Assembly: GCA_017609695.1 (NCBI GenBank)
Contig: JAFCDM010000016.1
Span: forward strand, 1 to 42,034
DNA from: Candidatus Pacearchaeota archaeon
GTDB taxonomy: Archaea > Nanobdellota > Nanobdellia > Pacearchaeales > GW2011-AR1
DNA length: 42,034 bases
Direction of reading: 5' to 3'
Positions 12,818-22,590 of the stretch are shown here, in pieces. The stretch's first letter is position 1. Each line of letters starts with the position of its first letter. A program made the position numbers and the translations under genes. Below the pieces are notes generated by a model. That model did no database searches and was not told the origin of the DNA. It saw nothing but the letters and a program-made list of their open reading frames with translations.

Positions 12818-13035
12818 CTGAGAGGACTCGGGCACAGTGTGAAAGTTCCTCAAATAAAGTCAAATCAACTTATCTATTAATTTTATTTTAAAGGTTATCT
12901 TTTACGCCCTATACATAGCTTAAAAGTGCAGATTTTATTTGATGAGTTATAGCCCGTTCATCAAACTACACGTCGAACACCTATAGAGGCCAACATAGTA
13001 GCATCCTTTCCAGAACAACTGCAATGTCCTCTCAG
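12818..13035 (-). ncRNA. Candidate structured RNA (class unresolved), or a structured leader of the Lys-rich gene
   Basis: ctgagaggac (12818-12827) pairs perfectly with gtcctctcag (13026-13035). There is an internal 8-bp hairpin, tttgatga/tcatcaaa (12938-12965). G+C is visibly higher than in the flanks. On the minus strand, TTTTATATA (13064-13056) sits about 25 nt upstream of the helix. Confidence 0.4.
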
Positions 13036-13127
13036 AAATATGTAAGAATTTAAAGTATATAAAAGCTTCTTTTTTTGTGAAAAGAAAAAACTGAATTTTA
13101 TATTAAGTTTATTAAAAATTTTTATTA

Positions 13128-20030: not shown

Positions 20031-20076
20031 TAGAAAATAAGAAATAATCTTATTATGAACCTTAAGTTAAGTGCCC

Positions 20077-20115
20077 CGAAAGGGCTGAATCCTTGACCAA
20101 CTAGACGACAGGGGC
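20077..20115 (-). tRNA. tRNA-Glu(UUC)-like 5' half (nt 1-37 only; no 3' half present)
   Basis: Minus strand reads GCCCCTG-TC-GTCT-AGTTGGTCAA-GGAT-T-CAGCC-CTTTCG, then GGGCACTTAACTTAAGG. No GGCTG 3' anticodon-stem strand, T-arm or CAGGGGC acceptor 3' strand follows. Confidence 0.5.
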
Positions 20116-21030
20116 AAATTTATTTAATTTATTCAAATGACGCCGGTTTTTAAAGCTTATTGTTTTAATATATTTATTAATATCAGTTTTATTTCCAATA
20201 TAAGTATCGGCTCCTCTTGTTTTTTGAATATTCCATTTTGAGGTTTTAAAACCCAAAGTTTTCATGGCTTTTTTAAATGTATTTCTTAAATTTTCTATAT
20301 TACAAGTAAACCATATATATGGATAATCTCTTCCAGTTATGGGACAGACAGAACCGTCTGTGTCAATTAACCCCCTTATACAAGCTTTTAAATAATCTTC
20401 AGATTCAAAAATCCAATTAGGTATTTTTACATTATTTTTTTTCTTATTTCCAGAGGGAAGCCCAAAATGTTTAAGGGTAAAAATAACATCTTTATTCCCA
20501 ATTACAATAAATAATTCTCTGTTTGTTTTATGTTTTTTAGAGTACATTTTTACATTAAATAACTTCTCAACCAAAGGTTTAACATAATCCAATAAATATT
20601 CTTTATCTTTTTCACTATCCCCACAAATTCTAAGATAATAATATCCTCCTTTTTTGCACCATATGTTTCCATCTCCTAAAATTATTCCAATTAATTCTGC
20701 AAGCTCTTTTGACGGCTGTTTTATTAATAATTTTGGATTTCTAAAATTTGCTAATTTTCCCCCCTTAACTCTCCCCCAATTCTCTTCTAATATATTAACT
20801 ATATGTTTATCAAAATTGATATCTGATAATTTAGATAATTTATTGTATACTTGTCTGCTAATAGTTCTTTTTTCATTAGCAAGTTCATTAACAAGATAAT
20901 TACTAACCACTCCAATTTCTCTTCCTAATTTTTCCCAAGTAAAACTATTTTTATTTTTGACTAGGAGGATTAGCTTTCTTTGATAACCTTTTTTTAACCT
21001 TATCCTCATAAAATAAAAGAAGAATTGCAA
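20101..21030 (-). CDS. HTH + double-motif LAGLIDADG homing-endonuclease-like protein
   Basis: Motifs LIGIILGDGNI and IRGLIDTDGSV. The last 5 codons (GCC CCT GTC GTC TAG) are the first 15 nt of the tRNA-Glu-like half. Probable start is at MRIRLKKGYQ. Confidence 0.8.
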   Translation of the reverse strand: MQFFFYFMRIRLKKGYQRKLILLVKNKNSFTWEKLGREIGVVSNYLVNELANEKRTISRQVYNKLSKLSDINFDKHIVNILEENWGRVKGGKLANFRNPKLLIKQPSKELAELIGIILGDGNIWCKKGGYYYLRICGDSEKDKEYLLDYVKPLVEKLFNVKMYSKKHKTNRELFIVIGNKDVIFTLKHFGLPSGNKKKNNVKIPNWIFESEDYLKACIRGLIDTDGSVCPITGRDYPYIWFTCNIENLRNTFKKAMKTLGFKTSKWNIQKTRGADTYIGNKTDINKYIKTISFKNRRHLNKLNKFAPVV

Positions 21031-21087: not shown

Positions 21088-21510
21088 TTACTCAAGTATC
21101 CAAGTTTGGATAATGATAACAGCTATTGCAATAATACTAATGATTCCTTTTATTGCATCAAAAACAGGATTTTGTATTTGGATTTTTAATAAAGGAAGAC
21201 TAAATAAGATAGCAATGAATCCAATTATGGCTGTGGTTAAATGAGTAAAATTATTTGAAGTTAATTTTTTTGAAAGGGATTTTAAGGTTTTGATTCTTGC
21301 TTCAATTATTAATCCTAATCCAATAACCAATAACCATAAAGATTCTATATAATTTCCAATATCTTGGTTTAATATTGTTTTACTGGCAATTCCTAAAAAA
21401 CCAAGTATGCTAACTATAGACAAAGCGATTACAAACTTTTGAGAAACCTTTACTTTTCTCTCAGTTGTTTGCACTTCTTTAACTTGTTTTTTCTTTACCC
21501 CTTTTTTCAT
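21088..21510 (-). CDS. Small membrane protein (3-4 TM)
   Basis: 140-aa ORF with hydrophobic segments FVIALSIVSILGFLGIA, LWLLVIGLGLII, AIIGFIAILFSLPLL and IISIIAIAVIIIQTWIL. Confidence 0.6.
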   Translation of the reverse strand: MKKGVKKKQVKEVQTTERKVKVSQKFVIALSIVSILGFLGIASKTILNQDIGNYIESLWLLVIGLGLIIEARIKTLKSLSKKLTSNNFTHLTTAIIGFIAILFSLPLLKIQIQNPVFDAIKGIISIIAIAVIIIQTWILE

Positions 21511-21547
21511 TAAATAAAAAAGATAATTAGGTTTTTAAATATTTTGA

Positions 21548-21571
21548 AAGATAGTGAATGAGCCCACCAGG
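21548..21571. repeat. Direct copy of the tRNA-Ile 3' end plus trailer (24 nt, perfect)
   Basis: aagatagtgaatgagcccaccagg is identical to 21865-21888, which covers the 3' T-stem strand, the acceptor 3' strand, the discriminator and 11 nt of trailer of the intact tRNA. Confidence 0.9.
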
Positions 21572-21736
21572 TCCTAGACAATTCTTTTAGAATTCTCTGG
21601 AACCATCAAAAATGATAAACATTTTTGTGGCCACAAAAACCATAAAAGTTTTTGATGGCTTCAATTCTCTTTTTGATAACGAATTGAAGTATTTGAACCT
21701 GATACACTGGAACAAATCCAGGCATATCCTCTTTTA

Positions 21737-21758
21737 GGATATGAAATGAGCCCACTGG
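21737..21758. repeat. Degenerate third copy of the tRNA-Ile 3' end plus trailer
   Basis: ggatatgaaatgagcccactgg compared with gatagtgaatgagcccaccagg. A T-arm fragment, gtatttgaacctgatac, lies at about 21700-21716. Confidence 0.7.
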
Positions 21759-21875
21759 CTCAAGCTTTCAATTCTTTATTTATTTTTTTAAGATTGTAAA
21801 TTAAAAACTTTCGGAATTTGATACCTGCGGTTCAAATCTCTATTAGAATAATAACACTATCTAGAAGATAGTGAA

Positions 21876-21951
21876 TGAGCCCACCAGGATTTGAACCTGG
21901 GACCCCTGCCTTATAAGAGCAGTGCTCTAGACCAGACTGAGCTATGGGCTC
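21876..21951 (-). tRNA. tRNA-Ile (anticodon UAU)
   Basis: GAGCCCA/TGGGCTC acceptor stem, GCTC..GAGC D-stem, anticodon arm CTGCT-CTTATAA-GGCAG, T-arm CCAGG-TTCAAAT-CCTGG. 76 nt; no encoded CCA. Confidence 0.9.
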
Positions 21952-22021
21952 ATATAATCTCAATATAATATGTATATTTAAAGTTAATTATTTTTATTAA
22001 TAGATAAATCTTTCTTTAAAA

Positions 22022-22590
22022 ATGATAATTGGGTTAACAGGGAGGATTGCTTCTGGAAAAGGAGAAATTAAAGATTTTTTAGAAAAAAAGGGTTTAAATA
22101 TTGCACTATATCTCAAGTTATTAGGGAAGAAGCCTTAAAAAGGGGGATTGAGATTAAAAGAGAAAATCTTCAGGATTTAGGAAATGAAATTAGAAATATA
22201 GAAGGAACAAATGCTTGGATAAAAAGACTTATTGCGACAATTGATTTAAATGAAAATGTCATTATTGATGGGATAAGAAATCCTGGGGAAGTCGAAGAAT
22301 TAAAAAAAATAAAAAATTTCTTTTTAATTGCTGTTGATGCCCCACAAGAGAAAAGATATGAAAGGGTGAGAATGAGAACAAAACCTAGCGACCCTAAAAC
22401 TTGGGAAGAATTTCTAGAAATAGATAAAAGGGATTTTGGTGAAGCAGATTTAAAAGGACAACAGGTTTGTAAATGTATGGAAATGGCGGATTTTTATATT
22501 TTTAATAATTCCAGCATAAAAATACTCCTAAAAAGAATTGAAGAACTTTACTCTGAAATTTTAAAGAAACAAGAAAATTTTCAACTCTAA
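22022..22590 (+). pseudogene. Dephospho-CoA-kinase-like / nucleotide kinase P-loop protein, interrupted by a -1 frame break in an A7 run
   Basis: MIIGLTGRIASGKGEIKDFLEKK (frame 1, stop at 22136). It continues in the -1 frame as GFKYCTISQVIREEALKRGIEIKRENLQDLGNE...IIDGIRNPGEVEEL...QL*. The break is at gaaaaaaag, 22082-22090. Confidence 0.75.

Follow-up and report, generated by a model that had tools for sequence, protein, structure and literature searches.

Downstream of its tRNA-Ile(UAU) gene, a contig of a Candidatus Pacearchaeota archaeon carries three direct copies of the 3' end of that gene, and these copies delimit two short tandem units of non-coding DNA. Units built on the same plan recur at other tRNA genes of this genome and of its relatives. 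They may well be miniature integrative units, that is, integrase-less segments flanked by attachment-type (att) repeats, mobilized in trans and accreted in tandem; we hold this reading as the best available explanation, and tentatively. The DNA analyzed, hereafter the window, is an entire 42-kb contig (C62; 42,034 nt) of a genome labeled G000, which measures 828 kb, has a GC content of 27%, and is 74% complete. Other G numbers denote relatives, C numbers denote genome contigs, and L156 and L159 are Joint Genome Institute (JGI) metagenome contigs. The relatives surveyed are a sample rather than an exhaustive census, and the genus set consists of 49 genomes.

The repeat was first recognized in a preliminary description made from the letters of the window. 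As claimed there, an exact 24-mer (AAGATAGTGAATGAGCCCACCAGG) occurs at 21548-21571 and 21865-21888. The composition ascribed to it also holds. In the tRNA sense, it consists of CCTGG (the 5-nt 3' strand of the T-stem), TGGGCTC (the 7-nt 3' strand of the acceptor stem), A (the 1-nt discriminator), and TTCACTATCTT (11 nt of trailer). The chance expectation for such a match is none (0/100 shuffles matched), and a search of the 828-kb genome found only these two copies, referred to as P (proximal, within the tRNA) and D (distal). The same description reported a degenerate third copy between them. This copy is present, but its coordinates are 21736-21759 rather than 21737-21758; it is 71% identical to the 24-mer over 24 nt and retains ATGAGCCCAC exactly. 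All three copies lie in direct orientation downstream of tRNA-Ile, with start-to-start spacings of 129 and 188 nt. The same two 24-mers, 317 nt apart, are present in L156 and L159, which are independent contigs from other samples with 99.5% identity to the window. L156 shows a single nucleotide polymorphism in the repeat region, at 21603. The repeat structure is real because it is reproduced in two independent contigs of near-identical strains.

The repeats enclose 317 bp of non-coding DNA, which forms two units in tandem, 129 and 188 bp long (Table 1). In the tRNA sense, the distal unit (21572-21735) starts with a short hairpin (CATATCCT/AGGATATG), followed by an anticodon-arm-like hairpin, the stretch TCAGG TTCAAAT, an A, and a hairpin called hp1. 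It continues with a 56-nt palindrome called hp3, then TTCC, a third hairpin called hp2, AGGA, and the 24-mer. The stretch TCAGG TTCAAAT is identical to the T-stem 5' strand and T-loop of tRNA-Ile, and the copy written as TCAGGTTCAAAT matches that tRNA at 11/11 positions. In what follows, hp1, the optional hp3 palindrome, hp2, and the final AGGA (tRNA sense) are referred to collectively as the hairpin module M. The proximal unit (21760-21864) is a decayed form of the plan of the distal unit. A further hairpin forms around the tRNA trailer: its first arm lies within copy P and its second arm lies in the insert, and the second arm is missing after the distal copy. The same layout is seen after tRNA-Leu, tRNA-Lys, and tRNA-Gln of G000. 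The inter-copy stretch folds far better than shuffled sequence, both as RNA in the tRNA sense (z = -6.7) and as DNA on the plus strand (z = -6.2). A cruder hairpin test was uninformative in such AT-rich DNA, its control rate being too high (59%). An Rfam search of 21400-22050 at E<=10 scored nothing besides the tRNA.

Further evidence comes from the recurrence of the units. At least five other tRNA genes of G000 carry a downstream direct copy of their own 3' end with the parts in the same order (Table 1). The scan for such self-matches was limited to 600 nt downstream of each tRNA, as a genome-wide scan with 12-mers and one mismatch was swamped by noise. From unit to unit, the arms of the central hairpin change in a compensatory manner, as in CAACAAAAAGC/GCTTTTTGTG of the Leu unit versus CAACAAATTGC/GCAATTTGTG of the Lys unit. 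Outside G000, two units follow tRNA-Ile(UAU) of G011, with repeats that match the tRNA of G011 itself, and the same plan is found after tRNA-Lys(CUU) of G011 and after tRNA-Gly(GCC), with a 66-nt repeat, and tRNA-Phe of G016. Metagenome contigs add units at Lys(UUU), Lys(CUU), Leu(UAA), Leu(CAA), Gly(GCC), and Gln(UUG). In 12 tRNA cases from relatives and metagenome contigs, the copy lies 80-141 nt past the tRNA, and in 11/12 of them its 13-nt tail differs from that of its own tRNA by no more than one mismatch. The match is locus-specific: the tails of tRNA-Lys(UUU) in L111 and L142 differ from each other at 7/13 positions, and each copy matches its own tRNA at 13/13.

The hairpin module is shared in sequence as well as in plan. 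Exact matches to a 21-mer within hp3 (CAAAAACCATAAAAGTTTTTG) were obtained in 19 contigs from GTDB representative genomes and in 66 metagenome contigs. The metagenome set holds 67 copies, of which 22 are flanked on both sides by direct repeats of 12 nt or more and 14 lie within 350 nt of a tRNA predicted by ARAGORN. The 73 nt around hp3 (21592-21664) show 97% identity in G008, and hp1 (window 21660-21688) is 96.6% identical over 29 nt to the hp1 that follows tRNA-Gly in G016. The order of parts in M is variable. Pattern searches are of little use for hp2, as the hp2-type motif AAAAATC..GATTTTTTAGGA is too variable: it has 4 matches in the 49 genomes, 2 of them unrelated. Partial tRNA copies that arise from the integration of elements are well known in archaea (PMC9897764, PMC3293823); we found no description of units of this kind in the literature.

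Do the units come and go? A duplicated tRNA 3' end in direct orientation had been read as an insertion-type footprint, and comparison with relatives bears this out by revealing empty tRNA-Ile sites. tRNA-Ile(UAU) is followed by tRNA-Glu(UUC) after 143 nt in G019 (L013) and after 68 nt in G009 (L195), and no copy of the Ile tail was found in G019, G009, G016, G021, G015, or G007. In G011, the two units lie between tRNA-Ile and tRNA-Glu. For G020, the order tRNA-Ile, ~127 nt, and tRNA-Glu is obtained from two contig ends that overlap by 56 nt, although this join is inferred and is suggestive only. M also takes opposite orientations on the same tRNA species in different genomes (Lys-CUU in G000 versus G011, Leu-UAA in G000 versus L126), indicating that the insertions were independent. 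These differences in presence and orientation among relatives therefore indicate that units are gained and lost. Within a single genome, hairpin sequences vary from one M copy to the next, and this is evidence against a recent burst.

Tyrosine integrases are present both in the genome and in the genus. In G000, an integrase split into open reading frames (ORFs) of 96 and 285 aa (C77:546-1851) lies 60 nt after tRNA-Ser(UGA), and a frameshifted integrase (C94:7100-8250) lies ~125 nt after tRNA-Gly(UCC). An intact integrase of 389 aa (C80:49-1218; PF00589, 36.7 bits) has a homologue in L159. On C52, the integrase domain is split in two within a 704-aa open frame, possibly by an intein or an insertion. 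A 1-kb fic cassette (C75:1-1030) lies between two direct copies of the tRNA-Ser(UGA) 3' end (GGGCGGGGGCGTTT). The C80-type integrase occurs in 19/49 genomes of the genus, and 17 of 29 such loci sit 75-170 nt after a tRNA, including tRNA-Glu(UUC) in G009 and G057. Three complete integrase-bearing elements measure 6.6, 13.4, and 12.1 kb. Their distal repeats consist of the T-stem 3' strand, the acceptor 3' strand, and the discriminator. In other words, they have the same left boundary as the repeats in the window. The link between these integrases and the units is circumstantial. We infer that an integrase made the units and that the units move.

How might a unit be formed? Each unit consists, in the tRNA sense, of a short hairpin that completes the tRNA trailer; a tRNA-like stretch made up of an anticodon-arm-like hairpin and the host's own T-stem 5' strand and T-loop; the lineage-specific hairpin module M; and a fresh T-stem 3' strand, acceptor 3' strand, and discriminator with the first trailer bases. 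A small DNA bearing a tRNA 3' end would recombine into the T-arm and 3' end of the tRNA gene, leaving the gene intact and the displaced 3' end on the far side. The mobilizing enzyme would act in trans and would be one of the tRNA-targeting tyrosine integrases that the genome encodes, and tandem arrays would result from repeated events or from unequal exchange. A single crossover between the tRNA gene and a circle carrying the T-stem 5' strand and T-loop, M, a tRNA 3' end, and a spacer would give exactly the observed succession, in which the tRNA is followed by a 3' end, the spacer, the T-stem 5' strand with the T-loop, M, and another 3' end.

Several results do not sit well with this model and weigh against it. 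There is no integrase inside the repeats, as had been noted before: the longest ORF in the 317 bp between the copies has 49 aa. The arms of the integrase-bearing elements carry TTTGTCCA/GGGAC motifs and no M hairpins, the units are without those motifs, and the sole overlap between the two is a GTCCCATT-like linker. P and D are identical while the middle copy has diverged, a pattern that simple serial integration at the tRNA does not predict. All three near-identical assemblies are filled at the site, and no excised or empty variant was seen among them. Neither the hp3 core nor hp1 has an exact match in IMG/VR viral contigs. In addition to tRNA 3' ends (Lys-UUU, Lys-CUU, Leu-UAA in tandem, Gly-GCC, Gln-UUG, and Arg-CCU, where the adjacent fragment differs from its tRNA in the acceptor strand), repeats flanking M are found at the 5' ends of tRNA-Ala and tRNA-Ser. 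M also lies between repeats of the last 12 codons and stop codon of a protein gene and, in two genomes, between perfect repeats of 53 or 40 nt at an orthologous intergenic locus. Such sites are a difficulty because an element-borne att site for each locus is awkward. Finally, many M copies have no flanking repeat. The perfect repeats at non-tRNA sites, the repeat-less M copies, and the co-variation of each copy with its tRNA keep two rival explanations alive.

The first rival, somewhat unlikely in our estimate, is that M is a small non-autonomous transposon-like element which inserts near gene ends, preferentially in the T-loop region of tRNAs, at widely staggered cuts. Once repaired, such cuts would leave long target duplications of variable length (13-66 nt), and the three copies would be duplications of this kind instead of att sites. 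The flanking repeats are indeed locus-specific, usually perfect, and variable in length (13, 15-17, 22-24, 30, 40, 49, 53, 55, and 66 nt), and insertion sequences of the IS1634/IS1549 type provide a precedent for long and variable target duplications. The range of sites just described, at both ends of tRNA genes, at protein-gene 3' ends, and in intergenic DNA, with M in both orientations relative to the tRNA, also fits such an element, as does the position of the hp1 end of M, which in every case adjoins the T-loop 7-mer. However, no terminal inverted repeats were found, and pure target duplication leaves unexplained the host-specific copy of the T-stem 5' strand and T-loop between the repeats in the window orientation. 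The hairpin differences among the M copies of one genome speak against a recent burst of transposition, and many copies lack flanking repeats. A linked transposase is also missing. Y1 (RAYT/IS200-like) genes are present in 20/49 genomes, but their ends are GC-rich and unrelated, and no Y1 gene was found in the M-carrying G000, G011, G016, or G023. Cas1 was found in 1/49 genomes and TnpB in 6/49.

The second rival, which we consider unlikely, is that M is a vertically inherited functional module of gene ends, such as an oligo-T/hairpin terminator acting in both directions or a structure to which a protein binds, and that the end copies arose by template switching or slippage and were kept identical by gene conversion. 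The 21-mer core is invariant across the 19 GTDB representative and 66 metagenome contigs, while the adjacent hairpin varies in sequence and keeps its structure. Runs of T5-T6 occur on both strands of M, and the strong folding of the inter-copy stretch relative to shuffled sequence is in line with a functional structure. M is kept after tRNA-Lys(UUU) in several lineages, with each partial copy tracking its own tRNA, and the orthologous intergenic repeats are perfect within a genome and show many differences between genomes. Next to the repeats lie short inverted copies of the repeat end, which are characteristic of template switching. On the other hand, the presence or absence of units among relatives and their differing orientation at the same tRNA point to gain or loss rather than pure vertical descent, and no function is necessary to explain tandem arrays.

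It is also possible, though doubtful, that the mechanism is distinct both from classical integrase att systems and from known transposases. M, taken as a variable hairpin, a CCCATT-type linker, and the invariant hairpin CAAAAACCATAAAAGTTTTTG, with or without hp1, could then represent an undescribed class of elements in Pacearchaeota/Woesearchaeota-like DPANN archaea. Such elements would install at the ends of tRNA and protein genes with a perfect duplication of the terminus of 13-66 nt, and the duplicated ends would be kept identical and co-evolve with the gene.

According to the preliminary description, the copies are att-like scars at the edge of an accessory region, next to a block with a LAGLIDADG gene, a toxin-antitoxin (TA) pair, WYL, AlbA_2, and fic, and any element is now degraded or was mobilized in trans. 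The accessory genes are indeed downstream of tRNA-Ile, and that part of the description stands. A tRNA-Glu gene, however, separates the copies from most of the block: the TA pair, WYL, AlbA_2, a beta-propeller gene, and fic are all beyond it. The claim that the copies bound the accessory region is contradicted, as all three lie within 341 bp and enclose only 317 bp, and no further 3' copy of tRNA-Ile or tRNA-Glu was found in the window past the island or elsewhere. Nor are they remnants of one large element; they delimit discrete units of similar size that share a hairpin module and are found at many tRNAs. A large, now degraded island that carried these accessory genes and left the copies as attL and attR scars is thus very improbable. 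The sister strain represented by L159 points to a different anchor. Below 21088 the sequences of L159 and the window diverge: L159 has no LAGLIDADG ORF and carries instead, ~45 nt past the membrane ORF, a different tRNA-Glu allele and then the N-terminus of a tyrosine integrase. Because an integrase directly follows tRNA-Glu in this strain, tRNA-Glu is more likely to be the natural anchor of the island than the three tRNA-Ile copies. The LAGLIDADG ORF is strain-variable, and tRNA-Glu is the ancestral downstream neighbor of tRNA-Ile.

Hardly credible is the idea that the partial copies are exons of a split tRNA or of a tRNA with a T-loop intron, or alternative 3' halves joined as RNA. The succession of T-stem 5' strand and T-loop, insert, and T-stem 3' strand with acceptor 3' strand does resemble a T-arm with an intron, and relatives do have tRNA introns. 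Yet the adjacent tRNA is complete (69.8 bits), the units are without an acceptor 5' strand and D-arm, neither visual inspection nor the minimum-free-energy fold revealed a bulge-helix-bulge at the junctions, and elsewhere the module lies antisense to the tRNA or 5' of the T-loop. An assembly artefact, whether a mis-joined repeat or a strain bubble, has a negligible chance of accounting for the copies: the contig does have other lesions (tRNA-Glu lacks 30 nt and a kinase gene is frameshifted by 1 nt), but the structure is reproduced in the two independent contigs and has analogues in many assemblies from different assemblers.

Table 1. Features of the tRNA-Ile region of the window and tRNA genes of G000 with downstream copies of their own 3' end
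Feature	Location	Strand	Basis or remark
tRNA-Ile(UAU), intact, intron-less	21876..21951	-	ARAGORN; Rfam RF00005, 69.8 bits
Proximal copy P, last 13 nt of tRNA + 11 nt of trailer	21865..21888	-	Exact 24-mer
Trailer hairpin CACTATCT-TCT-AGATAGTG	21855..21873	-	Read from sequence
Body of unit 1: degenerate insert, decayed hp1-like hairpin, CTTGAG motif before middle copy	21760..21864	-	
Middle degenerate copy, GCCAG TGGGCTC A + TTTCATATCCT	21736..21759	-	Sequence comparison
Hairpin CATATCCT-AAAAG-AGGATATG, right after middle copy, analogous to trailer hairpin	21723..21743	-	
Anticodon-arm-like hairpin (CCTGG ATTTGTT CCAG), then T-stem 5' strand/T-loop copy TCAGGTTCAAAT	21691..21722	-	
Module hairpin hp1 (CTTCAATTC TCTTTTTGATAAC GAATTGAAG)	21659..21689	+	
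56-nt palindrome hp3	21603..21658	+	Holds lineage-wide 21-mer CAAAAACCATAAAAGTTTTTG at 21635-21655
Module end: TCCT + hp2 (AGACAATTC TTTTA GAATTCTCT) + GGAA	21572..21602	+	Abuts distal copy
Distal copy D, 24/24 nt same as P	21548..21571	-	Exact 24-mer
Membrane ORF, 140 aa	21088..21510	-	Outside repeats, not part of units
LAGLIDADG ORF	20101-21030		Between membrane ORF and tRNA-Glu
tRNA-Glu(UUC)	20072..20115	-	30 internal nt missing in window contig
tRNA-Leu(UAA)	C18		30-nt perfect repeat, copy at +111
tRNA-Lys(CUU)	C34		23-nt perfect repeat, copy at +114
tRNA-Gln(CUG)	C33		Degenerate, copy at +124
tRNA-Tyr	C67		Several degenerate copies, +272
tRNA-Ile(GAU)	C70		Degenerate, copy at +74

Comparison of the window with the metagenome contigs also revealed small differences in the neighboring genes. 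The tRNA-Glu of L156 is complete and 30 nt longer than that of the window, and its membrane ORF has 143 aa, with a 9-nt indel relative to the window at 21205. A CoaE-like kinase gene (22022-22590) is frameshifted at 22089; L156 has one extra G and an intact 189-aa gene, and the gene is broken in L159. From the sequences compared, the frameshift looks like a sequence error or a strain variant, not programmed frameshifting. Further away, on the minus strand at ~12830-13045, a GC-richer non-coding stretch is closed by GAGAGGAC...GTCCTCTC. It looks like a structured RNA, possibly the RNase P RNA or the signal recognition particle (SRP) RNA, and Rfam reported nothing for this stretch at gathering thresholds.

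Other observations concern the tRNA genes and modules elsewhere. Downstream of tRNA-Tyr in G000 (C67:1-473), there are at least four partial 3'-end copies, including a tandem pair (...AAGATGAGGGATATATTAATATTTG). Introns near position 37/38 are present in tRNA-Ile(UAU) of G009 (87 nt; L166/L195, G009:C50) and in tRNA-Lys(UUU) of G012 (68 nt; L174/L193, G012:C40). G002 has at least six copies, on six contigs (L040-L045), of a repeat element of ~200 nt or longer with a variant core (AGAAAAACCATAAAAGTTTTTCT) flanked by further hairpins. In L004 (G008:C2:34080-34200), a long-form module abuts a tRNA-3'-like fragment (CCTGCTGGCTGTG) that does not match the nearby tRNA-Ser(GCU); HATPase-like and STAS-like genes lie between them. 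The exact 21-mer is confined to metagenome-assembled genomes of the Pacearchaeota/Woesearchaeota type, apart from L063 (CAZJZJ010000035.1), which is binned as 'uncultured Methanosarcinales archaeon' and may be mis-binned.

A number of known mobilizers and origins were considered for the units and rejected. M is not a miniature inverted-repeat transposable element, as no inverted repeat joins the unit ends and the flanking repeats, at 13-66 nt, are not of fixed length. The Y1 genes, with their unrelated GC-rich ends, were set aside as mobilizers; so was TnpB, which shows no link to M in the 6 genomes that have it. Insertion by a casposon or Cas1 was discarded in view of the single Cas1-bearing genome and the variable repeat lengths (a fixed duplication of ~14-15 bp would be expected), and a viral origin in view of the lack of exact hp3-core or hp1 matches in IMG/VR. 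The short repeats ATTCTCTGGAAC/ATACACTGGAAC resemble archaeal origin recognition boxes (ORBs), but a replication origin was rejected as many genomes carry these modules in multiple copies linked to tRNA genes. No orc1/cdc6 gene turned up among the neighboring ORFs scanned.

When genomic islands are delimited, a partial tRNA copy is usually interpreted as the scar of a large integrated virus or plasmid. This reasoning breaks down in the present lineage, where most such copies bound non-coding hairpin units of ~0.13 kb. Island borders drawn from them would be wrong, as was the case here. Should the units prove mobile, they would be among the smallest tRNA-targeting elements known to us, and they would offer a handle on how the T-arm is recognized by DPANN integrases or by unknown enzymes. 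If they are instead functional gene-end modules that conversion keeps identical to the tRNA, they would add a new example of concerted evolution, one in which a gene and a part of its own sequence evolve together.

How do the units compare with known systems? Repetitive extragenic palindromic (REP) sequences and bacterial interspersed mosaic elements (BIMEs) of bacteria are likewise short conserved hairpins that are modular, lie between genes at gene ends, and occur in either orientation. Unlike the units, REPs are without flanking gene-end duplications and are tied to REP-associated tyrosine transposases (RAYTs). Elements of the IS1634/IS1549 type are autonomous, 1.5-2 kb long, and have a DDE transposase and terminal inverted repeats. 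Their insertions between unusually long duplications of variable length are similar to what is seen here, but neither a DDE transposase nor terminal inverted repeats were found in the units.

Archaeal tRNA-integrated elements, which use tyrosine integrases and leave partial tRNA copies as attR, are closer (catalogued in Thermococcaceae, PMC9897764; model in PMC3293823). They share with the units the direct repeat of the tRNA 3' part, one copy of which completes an intact tRNA, and the empty sites in relatives. Genuine elements in the same genus also start their repeat at the T-stem 3' strand. The units differ from them in being 129-188 bp long and non-coding, in having conserved hairpins and no integrase, and in being of similar size at many tRNAs. 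The cis-mobilizable elements (CIMEs) of Streptococcus thermophilus are att-flanked, integrase-less derivatives of integrative elements; they are kilobases long and come from a known integrative and conjugative element (ICE). At ~0.13-0.19 kb the units are far smaller, and their hairpin module is absent from the arms of the integrase-bearing elements of the genus. Like CIMEs, however, they have att-type repeats on both sides and no recombinase inside, and they accrete in tandem at the 3' end of a tRNA or other gene. CIMEs depend on an integrase supplied in trans, and the same dependence is proposed for the units described here.

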